Shown here: piece by piece, positions 6,766 through 59,780 of the stretch
Layout of the letters: each line of letters opens with the position of its first letter
Numbering within the stretch: the stretch's first letter is position 1
Assembly (NCBI GenBank): GCA_965178125.1
Contig: OZ237758.1
Span: 620,001 to 684,000, forward strand
Length of the DNA stretch: 64,000 nt
Source: Bilabrum cf. latius
Lineage: Eukaryota
Direction: 5' to 3'
Notes under the pieces: generated by a model
What the model was told of the DNA's origin: nothing
Database searches by the model: none
The model's input: the letters and a program-made list of their open reading frames with translations, nothing else
Program-made: the position numbers and the translations under genes

Positions 6766-6767
6766 GG

Positions 6768-27800: not shown

Positions 27801-27859
27801 TTGGTGGCCTTGGAGCGCCATCCGAGGATGTTTTCGGCGGCGGCTCGACCGGGTGGTGA
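21876..27859 (+). CDS. Large protein with a probable ELYS (nucleoporin AHCTF1-type) helical domain and a long low-complexity FG/DPW/WG-repeat tail
   Basis: The frame 22400-27859 is open except for TAGs. Exon 1 (21876 to ~22241) is tentative. GALVLLDAG and DALSLPLDESEQ resemble ELYS-domain motifs (W.LD; LL.LPL...EE). Ends at TGA. Confidence 0.55.
27014..27715 (+). repeat. Coding minisatellite, 51-bp unit x ~13.8, encoding WGGSGDDGGSKPEADAA
   Basis: Near-perfect tandem units are visible directly. Differences are mostly synonymous GGG/GGA, with one D>E change. Confidence 0.97.
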
Positions 27860-32200: not shown

Positions 32201-35200
32201 GCTGCTGCTCGACACCGTTCTGTGCAGGGGAACCAAAGAAGCGCAGGGGCATCGAAGGAGGCAGCTTCATCGGCGCCCACAGCTGGAGTGCCGCAGGTGT
32301 CACACGAGCGCATAGGACGACCCGCACGGGCCGGCGCAGGCTGTCCGCCTTGATGCTAAGCGGAACCTCGAGCCACCAGTCGTCTCCTGGCACATCGGCT
32401 GACATGCCGTCACCCCTGCCCTGTTCCGACCCGCGACCCTCCTCCTGCGTTGACACCGGCCCTGCAAGACCCTTGGCTGCTAGCTTCCGAGCCAGCTTCA
32501 CAGTGGGCCTTAGGATGACCGCGACCTGAAACTCCCCATCCACAGTGTCTGCGATCTCTGATCTACTTGATCTGCTGGCCCGCGTGCCTCCCAGTACAGA
32601 CCCCGGCGGCTTGCCCAAAGTGGCAGCCCCCTTGTCCTCCTCTCTCCCCTGCACATAGAACGACTTAGGCAGCAGCTCTAGGTCCGCTGGGTCTTCCGGT
32701 GGCTTGGGTCCGGCGGCCTTTCTGATCTTTTTGCGTCCCCTGAGCGGGCTGATAATCGCACCGCTCGCCGCTGTCGTGGCCATCCCAGCATTCTGCGTGA
32801 AATCCTCCTCCGCCTTCCTCTTCTTTTCCAAGAGCACCGCCATGGCTCCAGCAGACACCGTCTTGCTTCCAAACACGGCCTCGTCGCCCTCATCCGCGGC
32901 CTGTTCTAGAAGAGCCATGTCGTCGTCGATGCCTCCCTCTGTCGCCTTCTTTCTCTCTGCCTCGACGGCGTCCAATCGACCGGCGTCTGCATTCACGGCC
33001 CCGCCGCTGCCCACTTTGACGGCCGCAGGAGCCTCAACCCTGCACTTTAGAGAAGTGGGGCCGGCGTTCTTGAGAATGACGAGTGCTCTGTACGCCTTTC
33101 CATCCAAGCAGGTGCGCAGGTCGATCCGCCTGACAGGGGCATACAGGGGCAGAGCGAGCGCCCTGGCCTGAATCTCCAGTCGCAGCACCCGCCGCTCCTC
33201 CGGGAGAGCCTTATCCCCGCCGTCCATGGGCTGGCTAGAGATGAGGCAGCTCGCCCTGAGCAGTCCAGCGGACCCCCGGGGCTTGAAGTGGACCCTGAGT
33301 GATCGGCTCGAGTAGGCCGGCACCTCCCCGCTTGGAGGAAGTCCCACGAACCCCGTAGAGGGCGACGGCCCGTCCTCGGGCAGCGCTTCCGGGTCCAGCT
33401 GCACCTCTGTATCGTGGGGATCTTCGCTCCAGTCCATCCTATATGCGAAAGGAATGGCGCCGTGGTTGTGCAGCCGAAAGGTGCTGGATCCGTCCTGTCC
33501 CACTACCACAGCACCCAGGTCAAGTCTGGAGGTCCTGAGTGTTTCCCTCCAGCGCCGGCTGGACCGGAACTGCACGGTGGAGACGACCGGATCCGTGGCC
33601 TCCCCGTCTGCCCTAGACGGCTTGGGCAGCGGACTGAGAGCGGGAACGGCTCGAGCCGGCGAGCACCTGACGGGCACGTTGCACGGCCCGGTGGACGACA
33701 GCACGGGCAGCTCAAACTCGAGGTCCTTGCTGTATCCCGGAGGAACCTCGAAGCGCAGCCGAAGCGGCGCAGATGTGCCCGCGCTCATTCGTCCCTGCGG
33801 CTTCCACAGGGGCGTGAAGAGATCACGGAGCTCGTCCGGCGCGTCTCCCACGCGGAAGCTGGCAAACGAGTAGCTCGAGTTGGTCAGCGTGACCTTCTGC
33901 TCGACCACTGTGCCGCCCCGATAATCGATGAAAGCAAGAAGCCGCGGCTTGGACGTGAACGCACCCTTGTCAAACACGCGACCGGCCGCAACCTGGGGTC
34001 GCACGATCCCGCTCTTCTGCCTATCTAGCGCCTTGGCCATGGTCTTCTGCTCAAGCTTGCTTAGGTCTTTAAGCCGCCTGCCGCCAATCCTCCGAGCTGC
34101 ATGGACACCCCCACCTGCTGCGGTGGTGGCTGACGCCCCAGCTCGCCGGGTGGAGGACGCACCGAGGCCGGGTGCCGATGCCTCCAGCCCTGCCATGCCG
34201 CCGCCCATATCTTCCTAGTCGACCCCAGCGCCGGTACCAGTGCCGGTAGCCGAGGAAGGCAGGCCCAGGCCGGTGCCGAGACCCACCATCCCAGCTTCCT
34301 CTTCGTCTTCCAGCTCGCTAAGCTCCTGCGCCGTCATCATTTTTCTCTACCTCGGCCCCAGCCTAGCGCGGAGCACGTGGGGGTCGGGCCTAACGCCTTC
34401 CATGCCGCGCTTGCCTGCCTCCTTCGCGATCAGAGCAACGTCTCTCGGGTCCTTGCCCACCATCCCCGTCCCAAACTTGTGCGTGCGCTGGGGTGCGGCC
34501 AGTTCCGAGGGCAGTACTCTCAGCAAGCGGCCACCAGGGTCGAGGGCCGGCCGGCCGTCCATGGTCATGGACCGGATGGTCTGCTCTGCCTTCTGGGCCT
34601 TGCGGTCGCGACCTACCTCCGCGATGTATTCATGTTCCGCTTTTGCGCGGCGCCGCGCGGCTCGCTCGGCGATTCGTTCCGCCGCGTCCTCCTTCACGAT
34701 CTGCGAGGCCAGCTTCCTCTGGCTGGCCTCGATGTCTTTCTGCAGCTGCGCCTGCTGGCTGGCCTCGTCTGCCCTCATCTTCCTCCTCCTGAACTCCTCG
34801 TAGGGGTTAGTGCCTCGTTCTACCAGGTGCGCGGATTCTGCTCGCTTGGCCTCCTCCGCGGCAGCTCGTTTTGCTCGATTTCTGGCCGCCCGAGCAGCCG
34901 TCTCGTCCTCTACCTTCGTGAGGGAGTCTCTCAGGGTAAGAAGGGAGGCGGTGCGAGCGGCGCGGCGCTTGGCCTGCACCTGCTCCGCGTGCTGGATAAC
35001 CTCGCCGGCGTCCTGTCGCATCGCCTGCGTGAGCTCTTGCGCCCTGCCCCGCGCCTTCTGCGTGGCTGCCATCTTGCTGGCTGCTCGCTTCGAGTCTGCG
35101 AGCAGCGCTCGGTGCAGCTTGGCGGACTCGCGCCCTGCTCGTGCTTCCTGGACTCGGCGGACAGCGATGTCTCTCTCGATTCTCGCGTCAGCAGCTGCGG

Positions 35201-35645
35201 CATCCCGTTGCGCTTCCCGTTCGATCAAGGCGTGCGCTGCTTGCGCCTGCGCATCTCGCTTGTCTTGCTCCAACAGTGCCGCATCTCTAGTGGTATCTGC
35301 CTCTGCAAACAGCTGCCGTTCCCTCTCCGAACCGCTTTCAGCAGTCTGGAGCTTTTTCTGCGTGCGTACGACTGCCCTTCGGGCACGAACTACCTCAGCG
35401 TCCAGCTCGCCGGTCCCTTTGATCCTAGCTTTCTCTGCCTCAGCCTCTGCAACAGCCTCCAAGCGACCCTACTCCCGCCTCAGCTACGAAATCTAGTCTT
35501 CTAATCTATCTAATCTATCCTGAGCTCCTCTAGCTACGGCATCCGCATCCAAGAAGCGCCGCTTGGCTTCAGCCTGGAGGGTGATGGCCTTATGTGCATC
35601 ACGGAGGGCAAGCTGCTCCGCATTCGTTCGCCTCCGAGTTGACAT
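29274..35645 (-). CDS. CFAP74: Cilia- and flagella-associated protein 74-like (coiled coil plus ASH/Ig-like repeats), ~2120 aa
   Basis: One continuous frame joins seven track ORFs through TAGs. Motifs GTNPYEEFRRR and FTSKPRLLAFIDY...TLTNSSYS...PQGRMSAGTS match CFAP74. Several ASH-like domains follow. Ends at TAA (29274-29276). Confidence 0.78.
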
Positions 35646-35760
35646 AAATATAGAATCTTGAAATAATAGTGAAACTGTATTCAATGTACCTCCTGGATGG
35701 AAGAAATCGAAAGTGATTCAATTCGATCCGTTGTTGAGAAACTGCACGCTATCTACCAAG

Positions 35761-37989
35761 TTAATCTGATTCACTGGAATCGACGTCATCGGCCGATTCA
35801 CTGTCCTCCTGTGCCTCTCCCTCCGCTCCTTCGTCGTCCGAGTTGACCAACCGGACAATACCGAGCTGCATTAGCCTTCGCAGCAGTGCCCCGGCCTGCG
35901 GACCGCTCATGTCCCCGGGTGGCCCTCCCCCGCGACCTGCGCCAGGCGCACCGCCGCCCCCCTCCCCATCCTCGTCACTCGCCGGAGGTGGCACGTGCTT
36001 CCACTCCTGCTCCCATGGGTCGTGGTGCCTCCACGACACCTTCGTGCGCTGCACCCGCTCGAGCCCCGCGCGCCCTCCCCTCCCCCTCCCCCTCCGCCCC
36101 GCCAGCCGGGCAGACCGCCGCGCCCCACGCCTGGCAGCAGGCACGTCGCTCGCCTCCTCATCTTCATCCCTGAAATCGCTGTCACCATCCCCTTCCCCAT
36201 ATTCATCTTCATCGCTAGCGGCGTCACCCGGGTACCTACGCTGGTACGAGCTCACCGTGTGCCCCCTGGGCGACTGTTCCTTGGCCTCATACAGCCTCAC
36301 GCAGCCATCGAAGGACGCTGTAGCGAGGAGGGGCAGGGTCGGGTGCCAGCTGACATCGCGAACGGTGGATCGGCTGGAGGCCAGTCGGCACACTACTTCC
36401 CCTGTCATGGCATCCCACACATGCACCTTGCCGTCCGCAGACCCGCTGTAGATGTACTGCTGCCCCGTGCTGCGAGCCGGGCTGTAGTAGCATCGGATCA
36501 GCGTCTCGGCCACGGAGTGCCCTCGCAGGGTGAGGATGCTCCTGTCGTGCTTGTGCTTCCACGGCTGCCCATACCCCGGGAAATCGCCCCAGCGGTAGTC
36601 GTAGGCGGCGAAAGGACTCTCCACCTCGGGCAATTCGTCGAACTGCGAGCTGGAATACATGCGCCGAATGTCCCACACCTTGCACGTGTTGTCCTTGGCG
36701 TTGCTGATCAAGTACCTCCCGTCTTCCCTGGAGCAAAGGCTGGTGATCCCATTCCCGTGCCCTGGCAAGATGCCCTATGCTTGCGTGCTCCTTCCCATGA
36801 CCCTCCTGTCAAACACCTTGATCAGAGTGTCGTCAGACCCGCTGGCCACGAGGTGAGGGCTGTGGTCCATGTCCAGGAAGGTCACCGCGTTGATGTCGTC
36901 CTTGTGGGCCAGCTGCTGCGCCACTGTGGCGCGCCGCTCCACGTCGTACACCATCACACACTCGTTGCTGCAGCCGGCGACCACCTCCCGACCGCCCGCT
37001 GACAGCTTGGCGCACCACGTCCCAAACTCCCTCCGTGACCCCCTTCTGCCCCCTTGGCGAGAAGATGCCGCGTGGCCCGGCATGTTTTGCAGCTCCAAAG
37101 TCTCGTCCATCTCGTATTCTCCCCGCACGTTGCACAGATGCATCCTTGGGTTGATCGTCGTGTACAGGACGAATCGATCGTCCGTGGTTGCGTCCACGCT
37201 GGTGATGGTCCACTGGATTTCCTCCGCCTCGATCTCCTTGATGGGATGCATGTGGGAAGAAGTCGCGTCCATCACGGCGATCTTGTGGTCCTACGATGCC
37301 GCGAGGAGAAGATCGCCCGACCTGGAGAACTGTGCCGCGTACATGCGCGAGTGCATGGACGGCACGAGGTCCTACTTGAGCAGGTGCGTCGGGATCATGC
37401 GGCCGCCCGAGTAGTGAGCGGCGCTGCGGGTCATCCTCCCTGTCAATTTACGGTGCGATAAAATAGACTGGACTGGGACGCCAAAGTCCGCGATCGCCGG
37501 GCGTTCAAGCCGGCGTTCTCCCTCTGCCGTGGTGGGAGGCTCCTCCAATCCATCCTGGTCGCTTTCCTCAGTCATCGGCGCGCCTCCCGAACCTGACCCG
37601 GCAGAAGAGTCTGCTGATTCTGCAACATCCGGCTTCGACGTCTGCGCTGCCCGCGTCCCATCTTCTGCACGACCCGGATCCGCTGCTGCAGACGTCACGG
37701 CTTCTGCGCTCGCGTGCAGGCACTTTCTAGCTTCTGGCGAGAGATGCTTCTCAGCGAAAACAGAACATACGCCTCTTTGCCTGGCATAATCCATGAAATA
37801 TTCACTGGCTCGAAGATCGGCCTTCTGCTGTTGCTCAAACGAGTGTATATTCACCCCAGGCCTTCTTTCATTTCCACCGACTGCCACGCCACGACTTTGA
37901 CCCCCATCCTCGTCACCACCGAGACCCATAGCCTATGCGCGAGCAAGAAGCTAAAAAATACTCATCATATTCCTTCCTCCGCCCGACAT
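35761..37989 (-). CDS. DCAF11: WD40 protein DCAF11/WDR23 (LEC14B-like), CUL4-DDB1 substrate receptor
   Basis: Single frame with TAG at 37951, 37933, 37372, 37291 and 36775. Motifs AAQFSRSGDLLLAAS*D, WTIT, AHKDDINAV, SGSDD..IKVFDRR, DGRYLISNAKD, YDYRW, GHSVAETLIRC, TGQQYIYSGS and VRDVSWHP. Ends at TAA. Confidence 0.9.
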
Positions 37990-38142: not shown

Positions 38143-40271
38143 TCAGTCTTTCTTCCGGCGAGAACTTGTCCTCCTGCTGGACCTTCGCTTCTTCTGTGGT
38201 GGGGGCTTATCATCTGCACTACCATGCCCTGCATCGTCTCGGTCGGCGTCGCCCTCGTCCACCACAGACCCCTTCCCTCCTTTTGAGCCTGTCTTGCCAC
38301 CAGCAGCAGGTGCACGTGCTGCGGCCTCGCTCCCATCCGCTTCTGCCAAGTTGCCGCCACTGCCAGCTCCAGCACCCGCAGCACCGCTAGGCATAGTGGC
38401 TGCTGTGCCAGCTAACATATCCTCCTCATCGCCATCCTCATCCTCATCCTCATCCTCACCATCACGGTGGCCATCACCACGAAGACCTGTCACAGCACCA
38501 GCCCCGACGCTTGGCCTGCCCGCTTGACCATCCGCCCCGAGGCGGATAGTCGCTGCTGTCTTGTCTCCATCCCCGTCCCCGGCCCCGGCCCCGGCCCCGT
38601 GAGTCGCCCCCTCCAACCCCGGTGCAGCGCCCATCCCCTGACCCTGAGACGTTCTCATGAAACTCTCGGGCTGTGCACCCTCCCCCGATGCCATGGGTAT
38701 GGATCCTATCCCACTCACCTCCCCGGCCCTGACGGAATGGGCATGGGCCTGTCTGCCGGCACCAGGCAAAGTACCGCCCCCCGACATGGACAGGCTGTGT
38801 TCACCCGCTGCTTCCGGTTTATCATTGGTATGACCACCGCTGCCTGACCTAGACCCGCTTGCTTTCGCAGCGGAGGCACCTGCTGCGGCAGTGCTTGGCG
38901 GGGCAGACACCGGGCCCCGTTGACTACTACCGCTCGACGCAGCAGCAGCCGATCCCGCAGGGGCCCGAGGTGTCCCTCCACTGCCCCTTGCAGAACCCGT
39001 GCCAGTGGTGTTACTTCCGGTGCCTGTGGTGGTGCTGCCGTCCTCCTCGTCCTCCATGGTAACCAGCACCAAATCCGCATAGAAAGAAGCGTGAGACGCG
39101 GCACTCCCGGCGAGCGTGCTGGTGCTCACTAGCACCGGGTACCCCGGCTGCTCAAAGAACAGAGCCACCTGCGGGTCATCTGGGTTGGCCTGCTCGCAGA
39201 GAGATAGCATTGCCCTGAACTCCTTCAACGAGAAGGTGATTTCCACGCTGTACGGCTAGGGGGGTGTCCTCCCCCTCCTGACTTCCTCCTCCGTGGGCAC
39301 GTGCTCCACCGCGTGTGCCTTGTTCACGATGACGTCCTGGAGCTCTGCCACGTCCACGCGGATGGAAGACTGCATGAGATCTGGGCTTCGGAGGGCGTCC
39401 ACGGACTGAGGCTTGTCGAACGTGGCGCCTGCTGCGTATGTTCGCAGCTCAACAAACCTGGGGCCGGCTTCCAGGGTGATTTCCTGCCTGGACTTGATCG
39501 TCTCGGCGTACTGGCCCAAGCTGACAGGCGCGCCCACAATGCTGCTAAAAGGGGGAATCGACGTCCATTTGGGCGTGCAACATTTGCATAGAGTGCTTGG
39601 ATCTGGTTGTAGCAATGCCACCGAGCGATCGAAATAGAATATGCACTCACCAGTGCGGTGCTCGGGTCCGGTCGAAGGATGCATGCTGAATACCGCACGG
39701 TTCGTAAGAAAACTGATGCGTGCGTACCACGCCGTGCTTGCATTCCATCTAAACTACTATGTAATGAGTCGCGCGTTGCTTTTCGAAGGACATTCGCGCT
39801 CGTTCCACAGTCCGAAGCGACCGCAGTACGGTAAGTATGGATCGCACGGGAAACTTGCACATAACACTTTCGGTGGGAGAAGCACCGATTTCGAACTGGT
39901 CAAAGAAACCTGCGGTTAACAAAATGCAGGCTAGATGTTGAACATCGAGTGCCTCGAAGTCCAAACAGAACGCAAGCATTGCTTCGCCTTACTGGTGCTC
40001 AAGTAGAATGCGCCAAAGGCGTTCTTGGCATCGCTCAGGGATCGGAGGATAACCTGCTAAGTATTATGCAAATTACAGGCACGCGGAGAGTTAAAGACGT
40101 TCGATAGCTTGGGTCCCGAAGCAGTCGAGAGTTGCTCACTCCTGTATTTTTCGCTTCAAAAAAGAGTTCTTTCCCAATCTTTGCTGCACAGCCACATATC
40201 TATGCAAATAATCGCAACTATTTTTTCTCCAGTAAAACGCGAAATTTAGAAAATGCCTGCGAACTCGACAT
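38143..40271 (-). CDS. RAD9: Checkpoint clamp subunit RAD9 (9-1-1), multi-exon
   Basis: Motifs AAKIGKELFFE, VILRSLSDAKNAFGAF, FFDQF, CKFPVRSILTVLRS and EITFSLKEFRAMLSLCE...FEQPGYP, followed by a long disordered tail. In-frame TAGs occur in exon 1 and at 39256. Internal exon limits are not fully resolved. Confidence 0.85.
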
Positions 40272-40417
40272 GCAAGGAGCGAATGATTGTAGTTGCATTT
40301 AAGTTCGAGCAAGTGCGTAGACACACGCAACAAACACCAATAAATACGATTTATTGGACGGAGAGCCAGCTCTACATTGTAGAGCTTTTCCGTGCAATAC
40401 AGAGGGTCAGGGCTAGA

Positions 40418-43400
40418 ATGGGACGACGCATTGCAAAACTTATACTACTAGTTTTGGTTGTGACGGTCGCCGTTACGACAAGTCGAGCAGACGAGAGCCA
40501 GCCCGGGAAACCATCAATAGCCGGGCAAGCCGCGCTCCATGAGTTGTTGACAAGCATTTGGGAATCGCACGGACTTGATGGTACTTCTGTTTTGACAAGT
40601 ACAGAAGTTCAAGCTGCTTCTCCGTTGCCTGGAGGAGCGCAGGCCTTCGTACTCGGAAGCAGAGGCTGTGGCTCCACCTTTAGGTTAGCCCAGTCGAACG
40701 CGGCTCCCATAACAGGCAAGGATTCTGCAACTGATGGCTGCACTGATATCGAATCTCCCAATTTCAAAAAGAAGTGGGCGTCCATGGTTCACTCGCTTGC
40801 GGTGAAGACGTAGAGAGAGCACGTTCGTGCCAAACCGCAGCCACTGCGGTGGCTTGATACGGCCCTTGCGCCCAGAGATGGACCTCTTCCCGTTGCAGCA
40901 AAAGATGTGTCGTACTTGTGTCGTTAGGACAAATTCACAGGCCACATTGACTGTGTGAAGGAGCAGCATGCTCCCGTAGTCGAAGTTCACGTCCCGATCG
41001 ACCTGCCTGCAGCGAGCGCAACGGAAGCAGCGTAGTCCCTGTGCGAGCCACCTTCATAGCAAGAGGTGGAATGTTCCCATGCAGAGGCGCTGCCAGGCAT
41101 AAGCGGTGCCGGCACGGCGCACCTGCACGTCGACTGCGGTTGCTCAGCCACCGGCCAGGAATCGCCCACGATGCGGTTCGCGACGGTTGCCTCCTCCCAC
41201 AGCGCGGGGGCGCGGTCTGCTCTGCAGGCCACTCGAGCTGCTGCCCGGCAGCTCTTTGGACACAAGGCATGGGCTGCCATTCAGGCCACGCTCGGTGTCG
41301 GGGGGCACGCAGCACGCGGCAAGAATCAGGCGGAGGCCAGCGGGCGTGGTGCTTAGGCAGCGCATGGGGACGGCAGCGAGGCGGGGCTTGGTGAGGGCGA
41401 TAGCCAGGACTTAGGAAGCAGTAGCGGGAGAAAGTGCCACTGTGAGATTGATTACCAGCACGGTCAGGCGGAATCTGCAGCGAGCAATGGAACGGTCGAA
41501 GCCAGCAAACCCGCAGGCATCAAGCCGGTACTCAAGTGCCAGTGTCTGCTCCCACAGCAGCTAACCGACGTTGAAAGTGAGAGTCTCGAGAAAGGCAAAG
41601 CTCGAGGGAACAGCGCGGCAGCCAAGGCAGCCAGGGAAGCCGGTGGGGCCCTGGAGGCGCAGCTGAATAGGACGACGGGGCCTAGCGCCGACATTGCGAA
41701 GAACTCCACCGTGGATGGCCATACAAGAGAGCGCGGGAATACAACGGCACCCCTGGAAGACGAACACGACGCAGCAGCAACGAATCTGAACGCCACTGGT
41801 GCTGCCAACCCGTTCGGGTTCCTGCCCGGCGAGCTCAGGGCGATACTGAGCAGGGAGGTGGTCGTGTCGACCGCCACGCAGAGGCTTCGAGGGACCCTCT
41901 ACAAGGTGTGGGCTGCAGTGCAGCAGGAGGAGAGAGCGGCGGCCGAGGCACTGGGCACGGCGCAAAAGTTCCTCGCAGCGTCTGCCTCCGAGCCCATGAC
42001 TGGCCCGGGTGTCGAGGGGTGGCCGCGAGGGGCGGTGGCCGGTGGTCCGCAGCAAGACGAAAAGGTGCTGAATGCAGCCGCAGGGGTGGCTGGGGCCGGC
42101 ATCACAGCCATCGTGTCGGCTGACGCTCCCCGTGATGCGTTCGCTTTGGTGCTGGCAGACGCGCCTGAGGTCTCGAGCATCCCGGCCGCTGCGGCTGCAC
42201 TGGCTTCGCTTGCCCCTCTGCTGCCCGCACGCACGTCGGCAGCTCGGTCGCACGTGGTGGCGGTGGGCGGACTCCTCGGCGAGGTGGCCAGTGCCATGGA
42301 GGGGCTGGAAAAGTCCGACCGACGCATCGCGCGAGCGGTGGTGGAAGGTGGTTGTGACCCTGAACAGTTCTCCTCGGCTCATGCAAGCCAGTCGCACGGC
42401 GAGGGCAGGAGGTCCCTTGCCGCCGTGGGCATCGATGCGAGCGGAGAGGCGGCGTGGACGTAGGAGTCTGCTGCTAGGTTTGCGATGCACTGCCTCAGCA
42501 AAGGACAGGAGATTGGTGCAAAGCAGCGTAAGGCATCGCACCTGGACGGGTCTGGCTCCGCGGTGGTGCCCGGGTAGAGCGAATCCAGCGGCAGCTCTCA
42601 GTCGAGGTATGGCCCGGATGACGCCGAGAAAGCCGGCTTGCGGAGCGCTCACCTGCCTGACGTCATCGTGGTGCGTGCGGCACAGCTGCTTGTGACCCTG
42701 GGACAGACCATGCACAGGCTGCGTGTCGCTGCGGCGCGGTCCGCGGTGATTGCCAACACAGACGAGCAGGTGGCGCAGGCCGCGATCGGCGCACTGCCCA
42801 TGCCCCTGCCCTCATTCCGTAGGGAGGACGGGAACGGCGGCAGGACGGCAGCGCCAGGGCTCGAAGGAGGGCATGGGAGCGGGGCTGCACGATCGTCGAC
42901 CGGGGCGCTGCACTTTGTGAACGGCACGGATGCAGGCATGTGCGCGGCGTGGCCCACCTGCCTGTCCATGCTCGGGGGTGCTCCGCTGTAGGGCTGGCTC
43001 AAGGATAGGATCCGCCAGGAGGCCGGCTTCGCCATGCCGCCGCCTGGGGCGTGCGTGGACGGCGAGCAGGAGCAGGACGGCGGTGCGACTCCCGGCGTCG
43101 CGGACGGGCACCCTATGTCCCCATCCCCCGAGGTAATCGGCGCCTCTCTCGCGCGTGCCGGCAGCGGGGCTCGGAGCAGCGCGAAGCCTGCAGGTGTGGG
43201 GCAGTCCTTGCTGTCCCTCGCTGCTCAGGCTGCTTTGCAGAAGAAGCCAGGGCAGGGCGGTACGTCTTCATCTGGGAAGCAGGGCAAGAAGACCAGTGAC
43301 AGCAAGGGTGGCGGCAGCAGCAGTGCGGCCGCCGGTTGGGGCAAGTCTGGGCTTGCCTCCCTGCAAAAGTGGTGCGACAGCGGACAGCCGCAGCACATCG

Positions 43401-46400
43401 GCGGCGTGGTGTCAAGGCAGGCAGCAGCGCTCCTGCTCACCCTGAGGTACCACGTGAAGCACGCCAGCAGCAAGCAGCAGAAGCTAGAGGTGCCGAAGGT
43501 TGGTCCCATGGACGTGCACGTAGAGAAGATTACTGGCCCTGCCGCTCTGGACGCAGAGACGGCAGTTGACAGGTGGCAGCGAGCCAAAGCAGCGCTAGCG
43601 AAAGCAAAGCGCGCCGTGCACGACTCAAGCAAAGCCACGGACACTGCCAGTGAACCTCACGAGGACGAGGAGGCTGCACTTCATGAGGCAAATAGGGATC
43701 CTGCCGCCGTGCTGCTGCAGACCAATGCCAGGCTCCGCGGTGCAGCTGCGGGCGGCTCCGGCAACAGTGTCCGAACGAACCGTCACAGGGAACACACGTC
43801 GTCTGCGGTTGCCTCCGTCCTTGACGATGCTGGATCTGCTGCGCTGGCCGATGCCGCTGCCGGGGTCAGTGCGGAGCACCTCCTGGCTCAGCTGCTGGAT
43901 GGCGGTGCTGTCCTTGATCAGTTGGACGACGAGGCCCGCGCCCAGGGTACTACGGGTGGGATGCGATTCCGAGCCACTCGGAGCGGTGCCGCGCTGGGAG
44001 AAGATGCCACCGGGACGGGCGATGGTGCGATCAGCGTGGTGGACGAGTCTGCAGCAGAAGAGGGCGAGCCCGGCGAGCCCGGTTCCACAGTGGTGCACTT
44101 TCAGATCGACATGCCCGAGCACCCGAGCGGCATGCTGCTGCGGCTTCCCCCCGGGTTCCTGGACAAGCTCGTAACCATGGCGGGCGAGGATGGTGGTGCG
44201 AGCGGCGAGGACCAGCGGGAGACGAGCCAAGGGCACGCGGGGCGGCTGCACCTGTCGCCAGAGAGGGAGGAATCGATCCGGAGGTCGCTCGCCTCGCTGG
44301 CCGTGCGGGCAAACGGCACCCTCAACTGCCTGTGCCAGCACGCCGGCGTGCCAGCCGTCGGGATGGGTCCGTGGCTCCTGTACGCCCAGGGAGACCGGCC
44401 TGCATCCAACGAGCCGAGCACCGGAGTGCACGCCGCCGATGCGGCGTCCTTGCTGGAAATGGCTGCTGCTGGAGCCCCCGCAGAGCCTGAGAATGGCAAG
44501 GGAAACGCGGCCAGCAAGCCACCTGGCTAGAGCGCGAACGGTACCATCGCGAAGACCACGACAACAAAGACGACCACCACCGTGAGCTTGCGTGACGGGG
44601 AAGATGCAGCATCAGAGCTGGACGCTGCTGGCTGGCAGCAGTCTGACGAGCGCCAACCCGCCGACCCCGAGCTAGAGGCGGACCGGTACGGGCTGTCCGA
44701 GGACCCTGCCTGGATCCGAGGCAACGAGACAGCGAATCCAGAGCAGGACGCGATGGCGGTGCGCCTGACCGCAAGCCTGCTGTCCCCTGCGCCACGAGGC
44801 ATCGCGCTGCTGGCCGGCTCCGCTCTGCTGCAGCAGCCTGTGGCCGAAGCGTCCGCACGGCTGCTTCGTGACGGAGACGCTGTTGACGCACAGCTGGCTG
44901 CAGCGAACTGCCCCCTGCCTGAAGGCATCGCCACCCCGCTGCTGACTTTCCTTCGGGACGAGGCAATTCGGTCCAGCCTGTGGCCATCGAGGGTGCCCCC
45001 TGGTGTGAAGGGCCTAGGCACCAGGGAAGCCAGCAACGAGACCGCAGTGGCCGCCACCGTCCTCGACGACCTGCTTTAGAAGAAATCGCCAGTCTCATCC
45101 GCCACCATGGGCATGGCCTTCATCGCCGGCGACAGGATGCAGCTGCCCCCTGCCACCGAGGAGCAGACGGCGCGATGGGTGAAGGAGGCAGCTGAGAGGT
45201 GGCGGGCAGGCTTGGCGAAGGAGAGGACGGACATTGAGAGCACTCTCACAGAGGTCAGGAATGGCGGGGCGCAGGCAGCGGCAGACCGTGGTGTGGCCTG
45301 GCCCTTCCCCGCCGACCTGGTTGGCGGGTCAAGCAAGCCGGAGGGAGTGAGCGACGCGCAGTGGGCCATGGCGCAGGAGGCCTCCATGCTGCAGGCAGAG
45401 CGAGCCAGGCTGGAGAAGCTCCTCGCTGAACGGGTGGCCAAGCTGCTTGAGGGTCTCAGGCGGGCAAAGGACGCCGCGGATGAGGCGGCCAACGAAGCAG
45501 ATGCGCAGGCGCAGGCATCCAGGAAGCGCATCGCTGCGGCTGGCAGCAGCGCGGCACAGGCGCAGCGCACTCTCAGGCAGCAGCTATCTGATGCGGCAGA
45601 GGCCAAAGCGATTCTCGAGGCCGGCGGCATGACGGACCACGACACGGCTGCGGCTCGCAGGTGCAGGGGTCATGACCCGGCCCATCCAGCGGATGCAAGA
45701 GTGATCCAAGCCGCGAAGGAGCTGGCGGGGGCGTACGAGGAGCTCGCAGCGGCGAGGGAGGCAGCTGGTGGCGAAGCAGTGGATGGTATTGGGAACGATG
45801 GCGCGGGCGCCAGCGACAATGGGGACGAGCAGGCGGACGCCAGCAGCAGGAAGCACGGTCTGCTGGCTGCAGAGACCAAGGTGATGGCGACTGAGCTGGC
45901 TCACGAGCAGGCGATGCAGTCGTGTGTCGCCAGGGCAGCGGGAGCCGGAGGGGGAGCGGGCGACGACGGCGAGGATCAGCCGCCACCACCCACGCTGGCA
46001 AGCGCCAATGGCACCAGCGGAGCAGAAGCGGCGCTCGCTGCCGCCAAGGAGGCGGGCAAGCGGCTGAAGGCCTCCAAGGCGGCCCTGGCGAAAGAAAGGA
46101 GGCTCTGGGAGGAGGCCGTGGTGAGGCTCGTGCGCCCAAGGACGTGCCTGCAGCTCCAGTCGCTCGCCACCGGTGCTCCCAGCGGGCTGTACACCGTGTT
46201 CCCGCCGGGCGAAGGGGACTTCCAGGGCGTGCGGGTGTTCTGCGACATGGAGTCCGATGGGGGCGGCTGGACGCTGATCGGGTGGGGCCCGGAGGGCAGC
46301 ATCGGCGGCCCCTTGGGTCTGTCCGGGGGGGATGAGGGGGTTGGAGAAGGGGGCTCGCCTGCAGACAAGGGCTCCCCCTCCCCGCTGGACAGGTCCAGGC

Positions 46401-47182
46401 CTGGGAGAGTGAACGCCCTCTGGCTCGTGGAGGCGTCTGCGGAGATGGGCATCAGCTGGATAGAGGCCTAGGAAGAGGATGAAGAGGAGGGGCGTGATCA
46501 GGACGAGCGGGGTAGTGGCGCCGGCAATGCCACAGCGCCTGCTATGGACGAGTCCAACGACACTGCGACCGTGACCTCTAAGCGAAACCGCGCGGCGAGT
46601 GCAAAGAAAGCAGCCGCGCTGTCGCAGGCCGGCATGTCTCAGTACGGGAGCACCGTGGCCATCTCCATCCCCTCCCCCGGAAGGACCGATCTCAGCCTGA
46701 GCCCCGCGCCGCCGAAGCAGTCCTGCAGCGACGATCGGGGGGACTACGCAGTGGCGAGGGTTCGGTGCATGAGTGGGACCTATGGGGCGAACAGCAGCGG
46801 CAGTGAGCCGGGTCGGGGAACTGATGACTCGGAGTGCCCCTTTCCTGCGCGCATGTACACGGGTGCCACCTCGCTTGGAGTATGCAGCGGTCACGCGTAC
46901 GGGGCTGTGCTCATGGGTGGCGGGCCGAAGGACGCGTGCGATGGACCCCTGCTCGCAGGTGAGGCTGCAAATAGTTAGAAGAAGGATTCGTCCTCAGAGT
47001 AGGAGAAAGAGAAGGGGAAGGATAGTGGCAAGAAGAGTGGACGTGACGATGAGGATCTTCGCGTCGTCCCGGACGGGATGGGCATATTTGTCGGCGTGGA
47101 CGAGACGCCAGGGTGCTCCGGAGTCTCTGGCGAGGATAGGAAGGTTCATAGGCTCTCTCATGTTGCGGTGTGGGTTCGGTGA
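40418..47182 (+). CDS. Giant (~2250 aa) secreted protein with coiled coil and C-terminal fibrinogen-related (FReD-like) domain
   Basis: Signal peptide MGRRIAKLILLVLVVTVAVTTSRA. One frame joins eight track ORFs through TAGs. Contains PRTC...PSGLYTV...VFCDMESDGGGWTLI and ends HVAVWVR-TGA. Confidence 0.72.
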
Positions 47183-47298: not shown

Positions 47299-49606
47299 AT
47301 GAAATTCTCCACTTTCGGCATAGCTGTTGCAGTTCCCCTATTGTGTGGGAACTTGGCGCGGGGAGCTCCCGTCCTTGACATAGGCACTGTAGGCCCAATC
47401 CTCGGCCCTTCTGGCAAGCCTATGAATCTGCTGTACATCATCTGTGACGATCTTCGGCCGCAACTGGAACCTTACAATATCTCAGAGTGAGTTGAATGGC
47501 AAGACGGATTGTGGTTGCGCTGGAGAGCCGTGCGGCATCGCTGCGTTTGGTCAGCAGCAAGACTATGGCTGGGCGCTCTTGTACCGTTGAATTCGCAGCC
47601 CCGCGCATGTAAAAACACCAAACCTGGCCAAGTTTGCAAAGTCAGCAACCATATTCAAGCGGGCTTACGTGCAGCAAGCCGTCTGTAGCCGTAAGATACC
47701 ATGCCTAGGAGTCACCGTGATCGTCGTGCAAGAACTGCAGGACGTGCACTGAATACTCGAACATTCCTGATCTCCCATCTCCTCTTGAGACATGTATCTC
47801 TTGCAATTGTCTTGTGTCTTGCAGCTTCACGAAACAGCTTCCTGTCCGGACGGCTGCCACAGAATACAAAGATCTGGAACTTCAAGGGCTCATTCCGAAC
47901 CACCAATGCCAGCTGGGTTACGATGCCCCAATACTTCAAGGACAAGCTGGGCTATCTCACAAATGAGCAGGGCAAGGTGTTTCACCCTGGCCATCCGGCG
48001 AAGTGAGGTCGCCCCAGCCACGCACCGCTAGAGCTGCGAAGCGCTGATGCTGGCGTGTCCGCCTGCCTCTGTCGAGCGCAACTGCGACACGTTTCTTAGC
48101 TGCTTTACTTTAGCCAAGCATGAGCCATAGTAAATACATCCTCGCAGTGAGGACGAGCCGTACAGCTGGACGCAGCCCAAGGACGGAGGCTTCCCGGCCT
48201 TCGACCCGAACCACCAGATCACTATCTGCGACAACCAGCCAGGCGATCCCCTGCAGCACCCCCTCAGCTGCGTGCTGCCAGAGAACAAGACAGTCGATCA
48301 CGTCCTGGCACAGTCCACAATCTCTCGCCTGCAGATCCTCGCCGAGAGACAGCGATCAGGCAAGGACACCAGGCCATGGGCCACCTTCCACGGCGCCCTC
48401 AAGCCGCACCCTTTCTGGGCGCTGCCCCAGTGGGCCTTCGACGAGTACCCCAGGGAACAAGTGCCTCTCCCCAAGCACATCGAGTGGATCGACAACGAGC
48501 CAGATCTGCCCTACCCCGAGTACTACTCATGCCACTCGATCGATGCTAGGAGCGAGGTGGCCGACAACAACCTCACCATCCTCCCGTACAAGCCGCTGCC
48601 CGACGACATCATCCGCAAGGTGCGGCAGGGTTACTTTGCAGGCGTAACGCACCTGGACCGCATGCTTGGCTCTATACTCGACGAGCTGGAGAGGCTGGGA
48701 CTGGAGAACGAGACGATCGTGTCTCTGCACGGAGATCACGGCTGGTGTGAGTATCGTATGCTGGCATGCTATTGTGACATATCACCTGATTGAGGTTATT
48801 TTAGCCTTCCAGTCATAGTTAATGGAGAGACTGTCGTAGGGAAACTAATACCTCGTGGTTGGAACTTAACTTGTCGTAGTCTGCGCACTTGTTGTCTCTA
48901 TTGAAACCCCAATGTCTCCCCCCTCGCAGCTCTCGGCGAGAACGCAATGTTCTGCAAGCAATCCACCACCGAGCTGCAGACTCGCACCCCGTGGATGATC
49001 CGCGTGCCTGGTCACACCAACGGGGGCGTGGTGGAGGACCCCGTCGAGATCGTGGACGCCTATGCCACCCTGGCTGACCTGGCTGCGGGTGCTGACGCGC
49101 ACTAGGACGAGGGCATCGACAGCAAGTCGCTGGCACGCGTGGTGCTGGATCCCACCCTGCCTGTCCCGGGGCCGATCCCGGGCAAAGAGGCGGTGGCGTT
49201 CAGCGTGTACCCCAGGTGCGAGAACGCCTCACTGGACGAGCTGGCAGCGGAGATCCCAGGCGAGCCCTCGATGGCCAGCTTGCGCGCCATTTTGCCGCCA
49301 GGGACGCCCGTGGGATACAACAACCCATGCACTGGCGTACCGCGGGAGCAATTCACGCACATGGGGCTGACTGTGCGCTCCAAGGACTGGAGGTACACGG
49401 AGTATCGGCACTGGGACGGTGGCAAGCTGGCTCCCAAGTTCAGCGTGGAGCCGGCGTCCGTGCAGCTGTACGACCACCGGGAGGACGACTGCACGAGCTT
49501 CGACGAGAACGGGGAGCAGTCGAATGTGGCAAAGGACCCGCAGTACGACAGCGTGGTGAACGAGCTGAAGGATCTGCTCAGGATCCGGTTCGACAAGGGA
49601 GCGTGA
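47299..49606 (+). CDS. Secreted sulfatase, iduronate-2-sulfatase/choline-sulfatase-like, copy A (5 exons)
   Basis: Signal peptide, then NLLYIICDDLRP, TPNL, AVCS|PSRNSFLSGR (formylglycine motif), GKVFH, KPH and GDHGW|SLGEN. In-frame TAG at 49103. Ends at TGA. Confidence 0.9.
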
Positions 49607-53907: not shown

Positions 53908-56900
53908 TTACTGGCGGCCCTGGCGGAAATCGTTGCTCGCCTTGTCCTCGCCACTCGCTGCATTGCCGCCATCGGACGCCATCTACCGCATGAGAGGCCC
54001 GTGGCCTCGCCACACGCCGTCCGTCCCAGAAGCCACGTCCTTGGCCTCCCCACCGCACCACTCCTGCCAACCCACTCGGGGAGGAGGATTCACACCGCAG
54101 CGTGAGCTGAACTGCCCAGTCTCATTAAGAGCAGAGACATCGCAGAATGCCCCGTACTCGGAGTGCATCTGTCTCGCCAAGTCAACGCAGTCTCTTACTC
54201 GCTCCGGCGTTGATGGGTGGGTCCTGTAGTACTCTGCTATGTCTTTGTCCAGCTTCTTGCCATCGGTGCGCTCCCCCTACTTCAGTGCCTCCATCACGCT
54301 CAGCGCCCGGGGCAGGCTGAGCGGATCCATGCACGCCCTTGTCAGGATCGCAACCCCGATCTTGTCAGCCTCACGCTCGTGCTGCCTCGAGAGCGGCAGC
54401 ATCATACCCAGCTGCAGCATGTCGGATACTACCTTGGGGTCCAGTGCCATCCCGAACAGCCGAACCAGTGCGAAGAACGGCATCCACGCGAAGTTCTCCG
54501 TCACATGGCTGGCGAGATCGTGGCCTAGCTCGTGCGCGAGGATGCCTGCAAGCAGAGCAGCTGCCTCCCTGTCGTGGTACTGCCTTGCTGGGTCCTCAGC
54601 CGGCACGGCCGACTGGACATCAGTCCCCCCAAAAATGCCCCAGATGCTTGCCAGCCGTCTGTAGAGCTGCTTGATGCCGGCATTGGATAGAGCAGCAGCC
54701 GCGCTTTCTTCTTCTTGCTGCAGCAATCGAAGCAAACCAGCGTAAGCTGTGACAGCACCTCCAATGCCACACGTCGCATTGATGTGAGGCGTGTCGACCA
54801 CAAAGTACGCCATCCGTGCCGGGCTACCAGCTCTCCCGAGCAGCTTCTCGTCAGCAGTTGCAGTCCTCGGCAGCGTGGAAAGCCCCTGCTGTGCCAGCTG
54901 GTGCAGCACCCGCTCCCTATAAATGGAGTCTGAGCCGCTGTCGTCGGGCTCATGTGCTGACAGGTTGCCAGACACGAGATACTCTAGCAGCTCGGTGAGC
55001 ATCACCCGATCGGCGACCTGAAACGCTGCGGATCCTTTGGTCTGCTGCAGCTACGGAGCGCCGTCTTTGGCGCCGCTGCTCGCGCCTGATGCCTCGGCGG
55101 CAGCGTGCTGCGTACCAGATCGTGTGGCAGTCCGCTTCTCTGCTACCTGCCTCAAATCATGCGGCTTGTGGCCCAGCGATGCCGCCGCCAATTCAAGCCT
55201 GGACCCGATCCTCTCGATAAAGCGCACCGTGGGATCGAAAGCAGGAAGGATGCGGGCCTCGTCTGGTCCCCTGGATGACCAAAAAGGGTGCTGAGCGGGC
55301 GAGCGCCCCGCGATATCACAGTGGGCGGCCACACCGCACGGCACCTTGCCCTCTCCCAGCAGTCGCGCTGCCTCAGCTTGTTCATAAATCACGGAATTCC
55401 ACTCGATTGGATCCATGCCCTTGCTCCCCTCCAGCTGGGCAGGTAAGTAGTTGGAAGCTGCGACCTGCAGCAGGCTAACAGCCTCTTGGTAGCACTTCAG
55501 TTTCTCGACTGGTTCATCGTGATCGTCTCTGGCTGGTCCACTGGCAGGCACTGCACTGGCAGCACCCTCCTTCATGTTGCCGCCACTCTTTGCTGCTTTG
55601 CTATCGGCCATTTCTTCCAGTGCGGTTGCCGCCTCATCGGCGGGGGTCGGATCTTGCAGGGGCTGCATCTCGTGCTTGCCAGAGGCAATCGTGGCCATGC
55701 GTTGGCTGTCGCTGTCTGGGGCTGGCGGACCGCCACCGCCGGCAGAGTCCATTGACAGACTTGGTGGCTAACCGGCTGAACCATTCTACTCGGCAAGCAC
55801 GCGCTATCGATTCGTTCTCGAGCCACCCAGCCTATGGCCTAATTTGTGCTCACCGGTCTTGAGCGGTGGCACGGGGGGCCACAGCTCGGCACTTTCTGAT
55901 GGTGACCCAGCGTCGCTGGCACTGGAAACCCCCACGCCGTGTACGCACAGTGGCTTGAACCTTTGCCTGTCCATCTGCTTGGCAAAAGCGCTGAAAACGA
56001 AGAGCTCGGCTGGCTGCAATGCCTCCAGAGTCTCCATCTCCTCCTCAAAGGCATCTTTCGGAACATCCCCGCGGTTTCCTAAAGACACGCGCCGCAACGC
56101 ATCGCGCCGATACTCTGCGTCTGTCTTTGGCTGACTGGTCGTCGAAGAAGAAGAAGACTGCTGCTGCTGCTTGAGCGCCTAAAGCTCCCAGTCAAATCGT
56201 CGCGGCGCGCCGTCTCGCTACTGCTGCTGCTACTGACCCTGCGGGGGCGGGTGCCTCGCTCTGTGTTCCTTCGCGCACGCCAGAGTCTAACTCGCACATA
56301 CCTTGGCCACAGAGATTGCCCTGGTTGAACTTACCTCCACGAGCGCAGTGGCGAGGTGCTCCAGCCACCGCATGGCTTCCAGCACCTCCTGCTGCCTTGC
56401 CGTGGGGTCAGGGCACAGGTCCTCCTCCTTCGAGTCCTTTTCGCCCTGTGGGACCGATGGTGGAGTGCCGATAAATGAGCTGCGCACCGAGCCGAGCACT
56501 GCAGAGGTTCCTCCGGGCGTCCCATCTGACATGCTTGCTGCCGCTAGAAGAGGGCTCCAGGTGATCCCCAACTCCTCCAGCCGACCAGCAACAGCCTGCC
56601 AGTGCTCACCGACCCCACTTTGGGAGCCTGGGGCAGTTAAAGAGGACTAGGTTTTGCCGGTAGACGTGTTTCCGCTGGCTGGAGTTCGACTCTACGGCTC
56701 CAAGAGCTCTGGATGGATGGATGCTTGCCATGCCCCGATCGTAGCCGAAGCGGCCAACTCTGGCCAGGCCCTGCTACCCGCTATAAGATGTACCAAGAAT
56801 TGAGCCTTTCTGTTGCTAGGATCGGAATAACCTTCGTGCGCCCAAGCTGCGACCTTTCTTGCTCGCACCAGAAGGGCATGCTCCTCGGAAGTCAAGGACA

Positions 56901-57306
56901 CAGCTTGCTGTTGTATGACAGCAGTGGCGAGGCGAGCGTAAAGCCTAGCTAATTGTTCCCAGTTGTCTACCAGCACGAGATGATGCCAGTGCTTAATCTA
57001 CTTCTAGCGATCCACTTCTACGATAAAGCTCCCGACAGAGTTCATCAGCCCTTTGGGCACTGGCATGAGTCTGGTGCGCTCTGTGACCGGTACCTAGTCA
57101 AGTGTAGCCGAAACAAACCAAATACTACTAGCTGTCAGTGACACCAGCAGTGCCCATCGACGCATCGCTACAACTCGCGGCGTACTCTCCTTCACTACGT
57201 GCAGTGTCTTTGCATGCATAGGCGTATACCACCTTGCAGACTTCATGCTTCGCGCTGTGCGCCTCAATACAAGATTAAAACGGACAAAGTTTCGCATGGA
57301 AAGCAT
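53908..57306 (-). CDS. Peptidase M48, OMA1-like zinc metalloprotease with a large insertion (~1130 aa)
   Basis: Mitochondrial-type presequence and TM segment, then LD*VPVTERTR. Later INATCGIGG, LAHELGH (HExxH), SRQHEREAD and RTHPSTPER. Single frame through many TAGs. Ends at TAA. Confidence 0.8.
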
Positions 57307-57462: not shown

Positions 57463-59780
57463 TCACGCTCCCTTGTCGAACCGGATCCTAAGCAGATCCT
57501 TCAGCTCGTTCACCACGCTGTCGTACTGCGGGTCCTTTGCCACATTCGACTGCTCCCCGTTCTCGTCGAAGCTCGTGCAGTCGTCCTCCCGGTGGTCGTA
57601 CAGCTGCACGGACGCCGGCTCCACGCTGAACTTGGGAGCCAGCTTGCCACCGTCCCAGTGCCGATACTCCGTGTACCTCCAGTCCTTGGAACGCACAGTT
57701 AGCCCCATGTGCGTGAATTGCTCCCGCGGCACTTGGATGCATGGGTTATTGTATCCCACGGGCGTCCCTGGTGGCAAAATGGCGCGCAAGCTGGCCATCG
57801 AGGGCTCGCCTGGGACCTCCGCTGCCAGCTCGTCCAGTGAGGCGTTCTCGCACCTGGGGTACACGCTGAACGCCACTGCCTCTTTGCCCGGGATCGGCCC
57901 TGGGACAGGCAGGGTGGGATCCAGCACCACGCGTGCCAGCGACTTGCTGTCGATGCCCTCGTCCTAGTGCGCGTCAGCACCCGCAGCCAGGTCAGCCAGG
58001 GTGGCATAGGCGTCCACGATCTCGACGGGGTCCTCCACCACGCCCCCGTTGGTGTGACCAGGCACGCGGATCATCCACGGGATGTGGGTCTGCAGCTCGG
58101 TGGTTGACATCTTGCAGAACATTGCGTTCTCGCCGAGAGCTGCGAAACGCAGTGTAAGTACACAAAAGTCGTAGCAAGCCAACATAGATGTAGCAAAACT
58201 TGAACATACGGGAGCGGCAATGCACAGCTACATTCAGGTCGCTTGCAATGCAAGGCAGGAAACGAACCAATGCCATGCCATAGACAATCATATTGAGTAG
58301 AGCGCAAGAGAAGTGTTGGCGGGCTAGCAATGACAAGTCCGTTTTGCTCACACCAGCCGTGATCTCCGTGAAGAGACACGATCGTCTCGTTCTCCAGTCC
58401 CAGCCTCTCCAGCTCGTCGAGTACAGAGCCAAGCATGCGATCCAGGTGCGTCACGCCCGCAAAGTAACCCTGCCGCACCTTGCGGATGATGTCGTCGGGC
58501 AGCGGCTTGTACGGGAGGATGGTGAGGTTGTTGTCGGCCACCTCGCTCCGAGCATCGATCGAGTCGCAGGAGTAGTACTCGGGGTAGGGCAGATCTGGCT
58601 CGTTGGTGATCCACTCCGTGTGCTTGGGGAGAGGCACTTGTTCCCTAGGGTACTCGTCGAAGGCCCACTGGGGCAGCGCCCAGAAAGGGTGTGGCTTGAG
58701 GGCGCCGTGGAAGGTGGCCCATGGCCTGGTGTCCTTGCCTGATCGCTGTCTCTCGGCGAGGATCTGCAGGCGAGAGATCGTGGACTGTGCCAGGACGTGA
58801 TCGACTGTCTTGTTCTCTGGCAGCACGCAGCTGAGGGGGTGCTGCAGGGGATCACCTGGCTGGTTGTCGCAGATAGTGATCTGGTGGTTCGGGTCGAAGG
58901 CCGGGAAGCCTCCGTCCTTGGGCTGCGTCCAGCTGTACGGCTCGTCCTCACTGCGAGGATGTGTTTACTACGGCTCATGCTTGGCTAAAGTAAAGCAGCT
59001 AAGAAACGTAGTGCAGTTGCGCTCGACAGAGGCAGGCGGACACGCCAGCATAAGCGCTTCGCAGCTCCAGCGGTGCGTGGCTGGGGCGACCTCACTTCGC
59101 CGGATGGCCAGGGTGAAATACCTTGCCCTGCTCATTTGTGAGATAGCCCAGCTTGTCCTTGAAGTATTGGGGCATCGTGACCCAGCTGGCATTGGTGGTT
59201 CGGAATGAGCCCTTGAAGTTCCAGATCTTTGTATTCTGTGGCAGCCGCCCGGACAGGAAGCTGTTTCGTGAGGCTGCGAGCACCTTGAGAATAGGGACAA
59301 TCAATACTTCAGCCAGAATTAAGGTGGAGTGGTGGAACCTTCGAACTTGATGCTACTATTACAGGTGGCGTAGCCGCGCAATGACTCTCAAGTAATCCAT
59401 CTCACGGCTGCAGACGGCTTGCTGCACGTAAGCCCGCTTGAATATGGTTGCTGACTTTGCAAACTTGGCCAGGTTTGGTGTTTTAACATGCGCGGGGCTG
59501 CGAGGCAAACGCGATGTAAGAAAGCTCCAATGTAATTTAGAATTTCTCTTTATAGGCGAAATTCAGCGGAAAGAAACGGAATGGCTCACTCTGAGATATT
59601 GTACGGTTCCAGTTGCGGCCGAAGATCGTCACAGATGATGTACAGCACGTTCATAGGCTTGCCAGACGGGCCAAGGATTGGGCCGACAGTGCCAACATCA
59701 AGGATCGACGATGCGGAAGCGAGAGCGCCACAAACAGCATAAGTCGCTACAGCAGATATAATTCTGTTTGCTGTAAACAT
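57463..59780 (-). CDS. Secreted sulfatase, iduronate-2-sulfatase-like, copy B (inverted paralog of 47299-49606)
   Basis: Exons are near-identical to copy A, with the same intron positions and the same TAG (ADAH*DEG). The signal peptide differs. Confidence 0.9.

Follow-up and report, generated by a model that had tools for sequence, protein, structure and literature searches.

Evidence that UAG encodes glutamine, with UAA and UGA kept as stops, in a GC-rich protist locus

Genes of the window and their in-frame TAG codons

The 64-kilobase (kb) stretch of contig OZ237758.1 analyzed here, called the window in what follows and numbered from its first letter, carries long protein-coding genes in which the triplet TAG recurs in frame. 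UAG is very probably an ordinary sense codon for glutamine (Gln, Q) in these genes, with UAA and UGA as the only stops, which would be a nuclear code of the NCBI table-15 type. The G+C content of the window is 0.55-0.64. The genes concerned, and the sites within them on which the argument draws, are the following, with open reading frame abbreviated as ORF.

1116-2624, plus strand: G-alpha gene with exons 1116-1233, 1405-1463, 1559-1702 and 1824-2621, then TGA; six in-frame TAG at 1446, 1452, 1607, 1628, 1878 and 2244
9525-10910, minus strand: methionine aminopeptidase 1 (MetAP) ORF with five TAG, of which two stand in tandem at 10593-10598 and another lies 19 codons ahead of the TGA stop
12210-21701, plus strand: separase-like ORF (SAP and peptidase C50) of 3164 codons with 16 TAG and no TAA, bounded by TGA
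22166-27856, plus strand: ORF of 1897 codons with 16 TAG, stop TGA, no Pfam family
26093-26104, plus strand: TAG CAG CAG CAG, in frame in the ORF at 22166-27856
29277-35717, minus strand: CFAP74 ORF of 2147 codons with 15 TAG, including a tandem TAG TAG at 30348-30353; stop TAA at 29274-29276
35764-37989, minus strand: DCAF11/LEC14B gene of 742 codons with five TAG, stop TAA at 35761-35763
37291-37293, minus strand: TAG at a conserved Gln column of DCAF11/LEC14B (LAASxDHKIAV, where x here and below marks TAG), placed by homologue alignment
38146-39915, minus strand: Rad9-like ORF with three TAG, stop TGA
40061-47179, plus strand: ORF with a fibrinogen-C-like domain, 2373 codons, 14 TAG, stop TGA
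53911-57306, minus strand: M48-peptidase ORF (PF01435, E 4.4e-17) of 1132 codons with 15 TAG, one of them 24 codons ahead of its stop, TAA at 53908-53910
56218-56235, minus strand: CAG TAG CAG CAG CAG TAG, in frame in the M48-peptidase ORF (PPPQGQxQQQxRDG)

The strings that an earlier note on this DNA had quoted in favor of a glutamine reading (at 56218-56235, 26093-26104, 37291, 1607, 1628, 1878, 30348-30353 and 10593-10598) are all present in their places. When ORFs of at least 300 codons are tallied over the whole window, the standard stops leave 31 of them, totaling 12031 amino acids with a longest frame of 880 codons, and taking TAG as sense gives 49 ORFs, 28154 amino acids and a longest frame of 3164 codons. 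Taking TAA alone as sense gives 33 ORFs and 12881 amino acids, the longest frame still being 880 codons. Taking TGA alone as sense opens many frames (86 ORFs, 38506 amino acids), because TGA is the commonest stop triplet, and none of these is long, the longest reaching just 939 codons. With TAG as sense there are five ORFs of 3164, 2373, 2147, 1897 and 1132 codons that hold 14-16 TAG each and not a single TAA or TGA. Across 12 ORFs with 14165 codons we count 95 TAG, 0 TAA, 0 TGA, 415 CAG and 110 CAA in frame, a density of 6.7 TAG per 1000 codons, and TAG would make up about 15% of the Gln codons of the window. This in-frame load is far above chance. The products named by Pfam are separase (C50 and SAP), CFAP74, a fibrinogen-C-like protein, an M48 peptidase, DCAF11/LEC14B, Rad9 and methionine aminopeptidase, together with an RRM protein, EGF-repeat proteins, an esterase and FAIM1.

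Contigs of four sequencing runs were compared with positions 1-20000 of the window. Those of runs X5 and X7, which come from two studies, join across the GT..AG introns of the G-alpha gene, skipping 1234-1404, 1464-1558 and 1703-1823, and on the minus strand the introns 634-746, 11635-11763 and 11835-11925 are likewise skipped by spliced contigs. The six introns confirmed in this way are short (91-171 nucleotides) and begin with GT(A/G)AG, and they mostly finish with GCAG. The G-alpha pieces 1559-1700 and 1822-2641 (to 2654 in X7) have no letter that mismatches the DNA, and the contigs covering MetAP, 8653-10795 in X5 and 9539-10826 in X7, show no difference from it either. The TAG codons at 1607, 1628, 1878 and 2244 and those of MetAP therefore stand unedited in spliced transcripts, and this identity rules out editing and pseudogenes at those G-alpha and MetAP sites.

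Residues opposite TAG in relatives

The strongest evidence for Gln is the residues that close database relatives carry where the window has TAG. The relatives are P0006 for DCAF11 (65-67% identical), P0127 and P0128 for G-alpha (96% and 83%) and P0247-P0253 for CFAP74 (66-95%). Relatives at least 60% identical cover 1418 query positions, nine of which are TAG sites, and at these nine the closest relative has Q five times, G twice, and S and E once each. As a control at the same cut-off, the Gln codons of the query face Q at 25 of 41 positions (61%), and codons for any other residue face Q in 0-2.5% of cases. The resulting log-likelihood is -17.6 to -19.9 for Q and -23.5 to -32.4 for E, the next best residue, the ranges reflecting the substitution matrices used. 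For example, both P0127 and P0128 read LTLFQQIAG where the window reads LTLFxQIAG.

Two side observations concern the same relatives. In the small sample of DCAF11, G-alpha and CFAP74 positions at 60% identity or more, the closest relative has Gln opposite none of seven CAA codons of the window, versus 25 of 34 CAG codons. In addition, the proteins P0127, P0247, P0249 and P0253 have 222, 184, 122 and 55 residues in public collections, each a fragment of a gene that is long in the window, and P0127 lies on a contig of 6095 bases. Short pieces of this kind fit standard-code gene calling that breaks at TAG, though short contigs could explain some of them.

The second comparator is a metagenome contig, L001, found by scanning metagenome contigs with G-alpha exon 4, so that the evidence base consists of one 64-kb window and one 17-kb relative locus. 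L001 is syntenic with the window from 1 to about 14000, with 68-78% nucleotide identity and 0.55 G+C, and its frames too are much more open when TAG is taken as sense. Over all 2490 exonic codon pairs, TAG faces TAG five times, and its 23 other partners encode Q nine times, A five, S three, R twice, and D, I, L and N once each (Q versus the rest, Fisher odds ratio 26, p = 2.4e-9). When the comparison is restricted to high-scoring segment pairs (HSPs) at least 60% identical (1478 pairs), the five TAG-TAG pairs remain and the 14 other partners encode Q in eight cases, A in three, and D, R and I in one each. The log-likelihood is then -29.3 for Q against -52.4 for T, the next residue, a gap of 23, with a Fisher p of 3e-10. 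The nine Gln partners are CAG eight times and CAA once, CAG being a single C/T change from TAG, and among CAG codons of the window 6 of 53 face TAG in L001. By comparison, GAG, AAG, CGC, TAC and TGG together face TAG at 0 of 281 positions, and CTG at 1 of 68. Several of the exchanges lie in nearly identical contexts, as in IDEVEQVRSLA and IDEVExVRSLA, HDDAIQAAYER and HDDTIxQVYER, or KFIEDQF and AFIEExF. Since L001 uses the same code and has five TAG positions in common with the window, the change of code is older than the split between the two.

One segment of the window, 3940-7340, is missing from L001, where the esterase and RRM genes adjoin. It contains two tandem paralogous ORFs on the minus strand, 4026-5156 and 5169-6740, which have no Pfam match and whose first 34 residues are common to both, including a TAG in the same place. 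In run X12, a diverged relative, contig depth rises to as much as 343 over this segment, compared with about 10 alongside. The segment is probably a repeated or mobile element.

Alternative readings of UAG and UAA

Of the readings that compete with UAG as an ordinary Gln codon, the one that fares best, at long odds, is a dual meaning, in which UAG would be Gln inside genes by efficient readthrough or suppression yet a stop in some contexts. Codes in which the same codon is stop or sense according to context do exist (PMC4967479). The gene ends that bear on this point are just 14, of which 11 are TGA and three are TAA, and they were defined with TAG taken as sense, so that a gene truly ending at UAG would go unnoticed if its frame stayed open beyond that point. 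Still, none of the 14 ORFs calls for TAG as its stop, and six gene pairs of the window and L001 have C-termini that align at TGA. The density of TAG over the 12 ORFs speaks against a dual meaning, as does the presence of tandem TAG-TAG in two genes, CFAP74 and MetAP, which the earlier note had soundly taken as an argument against leaky readthrough. The late TAG codons of MetAP and of the M48 peptidase, 19 and 24 codons before their stops, point the same way. In the MetAP gene of L001, GAC-TAG stands opposite the tandem and AGA opposite the C-terminal TAG; the peptide that follows this last codon, PWWLQEIPAAW, is conserved, so that translation passes the late TAG.

A slightly smaller chance goes to a table-6 code, in which UAG and UAA would both be Gln and TAA would be missing from the genes merely through GC-richness. 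UAA and UAG nearly always shift meaning together, according to McGowan et al. (2024, PMC11687900), and TAA is indeed scarce here, with 186 per strand in 64 kb. Nevertheless, if TAA were used relative to TAG as CAA is to CAG (110:415), about 25 would be expected beside the 95 TAG, and none is seen. Nor does this absence follow from how the frames were defined, as ORFs bounded by TGA only (3164, 1897, 527, 524, 462 and 414 codons) contain 45 TAG and no TAA, a count independent of the ORF definition. Where HSPs reach 60% identity, the exonic codons that they align include no TAA or TGA on either side, window or L001. When TGA is taken as the sole stop, the TAA triplets that enter the alignments of the two sequences all lie within introns, next to them or in parts that align poorly. 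Furthermore, three ORFs stop at TAA, and in one of these, CFAP74, the 93% identical relative P0253 terminates at exactly that TAA. The retention of UAA as a stop, a point absent from the earlier note, is the rarer part of this code. A code without any dedicated stop, of the Condylostoma or Blastocrithidia type, was also considered and was rejected, in that only TAG occurs in frame here and not all three triplets.

The third alternative, to which we give a lower probability again, is that UAG is sense for a different amino acid, be it Glu, Lys, Arg, Ser or Ala, the runners-up in our comparisons, or Leu, Tyr or Ser as in codes elsewhere. This reading was weighed against conserved columns, for which DCAF11 and G-alpha, the latter spliced as in the RNA, were each aligned by MAFFT with 120 homologues, with BLAST-anchored columns as a second approach. 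At the DCAF11 TAG at 37291 (position 233) the homologues have Q 113 times, R three times and K twice, with two gaps; the second alignment has Q in 112 of 118, and the relative P0006 has Q as well. The other four TAGs of DCAF11 fall in two variable columns (P/L/V and A/V/S) and at two unalignable positions. Position 83 of G-alpha (1628) has Q in 70, K in 12 and R in 10 of the 120 homologues, and the L001 codon there is CAA. The remaining G-alpha columns that do not lean to one residue are position 126 (1878; A 24, K 17, S 12, R 12), where L001 has GCC for Ala, and position 248 (2244; E 39, A 18, G 17, S 16, Q 7). Taken together, DCAF11 and G-alpha offer two clear Gln columns, one clear Lys column (position 54 of G-alpha) and otherwise uninformative ones.

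A profile test in the manner of Codetta, which sums column log-odds over the 21 alignable TAG columns of G-alpha, DCAF11 and CFAP74, places Q first at -6.3, followed by R (-10.9), S (-12.9), A (-13.2), E (-15.0), K (-17.4), L (-35) and Y (-43). In an unmasked control the procedure decoded 56 of 58 sense codons correctly, a result that is flattered because the known residues help to build the alignment, and codons were hence masked and realigned. For masked CAG the Q sum over 21 sampled columns has a 5-95% range of -9.9 to 12.4, and the TAG value lies inside it. With the other residues tested, 12 in number, true codons give a 5% quantile of -2.1 or more, and the sums at TAG, those of E, K, R, A, S, L and Y included, fall far below it and do not fit.

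These columns and profiles also bear on the claims of the earlier note. Its central claim, that UAG is glutamine, is borne out by the close relatives (Q at five of nine sites), by L001 (Q at 8 of 14, p = 3e-10) and by two of the columns it had itself singled out, DCAF11 37291 and G-alpha 1628. Three other sites that it had offered as Gln evidence do not serve as such, namely G-alpha 1607, whose column is dominated by R, G-alpha 1878, where the column is variable and L001 has Ala, and the CFAP74 tandem VSPGxxL, where the relative has G and S and the columns are mixed. The TAG codons amid CAG runs are there as it described, but poly-Q context on its own is a weak signal for Gln. Three of the seven runs of at least three residues drawn from Q and TAG contain a TAG, and Q stands on both flanks of 2 of 95 TAG (21 per 1000), a rate that is 15 per 1000 at Q codons themselves and 4 at K codons. 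Within two codons on either side of TAG, Q occurs 25 times versus 14.1 expected, a 1.78-fold enrichment.

A number of observations weigh against reading UAG as Gln, and some of them favor a different residue. Many TAG columns, taken singly, do not look like Gln. Within two codons of TAG, K is enriched 1.73-fold, nearly as much as Q, so that neighboring residues do not separate the two. At position 54 of G-alpha (1446), where L001 also has TAG, the homologues have K in 87 and R in 10 of 120, and at position 76 (1607), with TAG in L001 too, they have R in 55, K in 14, N in 13 and Q in seven. Position 56 (1452) is a hydrophobic column next to an indel (I 78, L 21 of 120), which we attribute to the nearby difference of one residue in length and not to residue identity, given that L001 has CAG there (KHIxMQLLK). 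The helix-1 motif of the window's G-alpha (1437-1463), KHVxMxLLK, has one residue more than the KQ(M/L)K(I/M)(I/F) of the homologues, and L001 has this longer form as well. In CFAP74, the tandem TAG-TAG faces G and S in a 66% identical relative, in columns that mix G/E/A/S and S/A/T/E, and the TAG at position 2036 is E in two relatives. The C-terminal TAG of MetAP corresponds to R in human MetAP1, known from solved structures whose four near-identical chains amount to one data point. The mean Q log-odds is -0.30 at TAG columns versus +0.06 at masked CAG, masked CAG itself decodes as Q in just 75% of 21-column samples, and in the 16 reruns with masking TAG came out best as Q seven times, as A six times and as R three times, A or R thus leading in nine of them. 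This makes the profile test a fragile one. Two further points concern the counts and the transcripts. Some of the 95 TAG may fall inside unrecognised in-frame introns, such as the likely 96-nucleotide intron at 56239-56334 (GTAAGT..GCAG) just upstream of the poly-Q site of the M48 peptidase, whose length is a multiple of three and keeps the frame. Moreover, exon 2 of G-alpha (1405-1463), with the TAGs at 1446 and 1452, sits between two splice joints, and its match to the contigs is known from those joints alone.

Against a different amino acid stands what the relatives show. At the nine sites covered by close relatives K never appears and E appears once, and the good L001 alignments, with their log-likelihood gap of 23, include one R and no K, E, S, L or Y. 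Codons for E, K, L, Y and W stand opposite TAG in 0-1 cases each.

Finally, the idea that the in-frame TAGs are not translated at all, as parts of pseudogenes, as assembly errors or as sites of U-to-C editing back to CAG, has nothing to recommend it beyond being the default under the standard code, and it is hardly credible given spliced contigs of two studies that equal the DNA over four G-alpha TAGs and MetAP, five TAG positions retained in the diverged L001, and ORFs otherwise intact across thousands of codons.

Source of the DNA, decoding and comparison with known codes

Some further features of the window lie apart from the question of the code. The C-terminal end of the ORF at 22166-27856 (about 27050-27800) is made of some 14 tandem copies of a 17-residue unit, GGSGDDGGSKPEADAAW. 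Pieces of a sulfatase-like ORF at 48134-48793 (plus strand) and 58074-58964 (minus strand) are inverted and near-identical over about 200 residues. Between them lies the block that holds the EGF-repeat genes and the gene of the M48 peptidase, an arrangement that points to an inverted segmental duplication.

The DNA is nuclear and comes from a GC-rich protist that is probably a stramenopile, to judge by its protein matches. Within the top 120 G-alpha matches, nine bear organism names, and these are seven stramenopiles (Cafeteria, Chrysoparadoxa, two Triparma, Tribonema, Chromulina and Florenciella) and two amoebozoans. A word-index search with CFAP74 gave a single match, to Ectocarpus, the list of candidates having probably been taken up by low-complexity words, and the best named matches of DCAF11 are plants.

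If UAG is an ordinary Gln codon here, it would be decoded by a tRNA-Gln with anticodon CUA, one anticodon change from tRNA-Gln(CUG), as has been proposed for Iotanema spirale. Such a tRNA would pair with UAG and not with UAA, and by the same analogy a release factor eRF1 with weakened recognition of UAG would also be required. Neither the window nor L001 contains a tRNA gene detectable by ARAGORN, any match to an Rfam family or an eRF1 gene.

Our search of the full-text literature (main texts of open papers and preprints) brought up no stramenopile in which a nuclear UAG = Gln code had been described, and the string "stramenopil" is absent from the main text of McGowan et al. (PMC11687900). 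We lean, by a modest balance of the evidence, toward the view that this is the first stramenopile case of a reassigned nuclear stop codon and that UAG alone changed to Gln here independently of other lineages, a change common to a clade that includes at least the organisms of the window and of L001, with TAG positions kept since their split. Other relatives, closer than L001, are known from protein fragments only. The setting is an unusual one, namely a GC-rich genome with UGA as its main stop, in which UAA is rare yet still a stop while the more GC-rich UAG has been captured. A further independent uncoupling of UAG from UAA, on another branch of the supergroups and in a GC-rich genome, would be a data point on how the constraints set by release factors and tRNAs are broken, and a cultured strain would offer a new test system for such constraints. 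On the practical side, gene callers set to the standard code fragment these genes, and annotation, phylogenomics and proteomics of the organism and its relatives need table 15.

Codes of this kind are already known. The nuclear lineages that uncouple UAG from UAA are a handful according to the main text of PMC11687900 (Iotanema, a rhizarian, Scotinosphaera and a few ciliates), and those listed there with UAG alone reassigned to Gln are Iotanema spirale, Protocruzia tuzeti, Hartmannula sinica and Trochilia petrani. In the fornicate I. spirale, as described by Panek et al. (2017, PMC5304391), UAG is Gln and UAA is still a stop, and a tRNA-Gln(CUA) was proposed together with an altered eRF1 carrying T32G in its GTS motif. 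It resembles the window in that UAG alone goes to Gln, UAA and UGA terminate, and the assignment was inferred from in-frame UAG at Gln positions. The difference is that Iotanema belongs to the Metamonada, whereas the DNA here is stramenopile-like and GC-rich, with UGA as the main stop (11 of 14 ORFs). The table-15 ciliates H. sinica, T. petrani and P. tuzeti, as presented in McGowan et al. (2024, PMC11687900), also have UAG as Gln and UAA and UGA as stops, with UAG scattered along genes like a synonymous Gln codon. In these ciliates, however, UAA stands at 93.5-100% of aligned C-termini, whereas TGA dominates here, and they belong to another supergroup branch. Table 6, used by many ciliates, dasyclad and cladophoralean green algae, hexamitids and aphelids, has UAG as Gln as well, with a likely origin in a mutated tRNA-Gln, but there UAA is also Gln, whereas TAA was tested here and is not sense. 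Finally, in the rhizarian exLh UAG is Leu and in Scotinosphaera it is Ser, with UAA a stop in both, so that UAG and UAA are uncoupled as they are here; the difference lies in the amino acid, and Leu and Ser fit the data of the window poorly.

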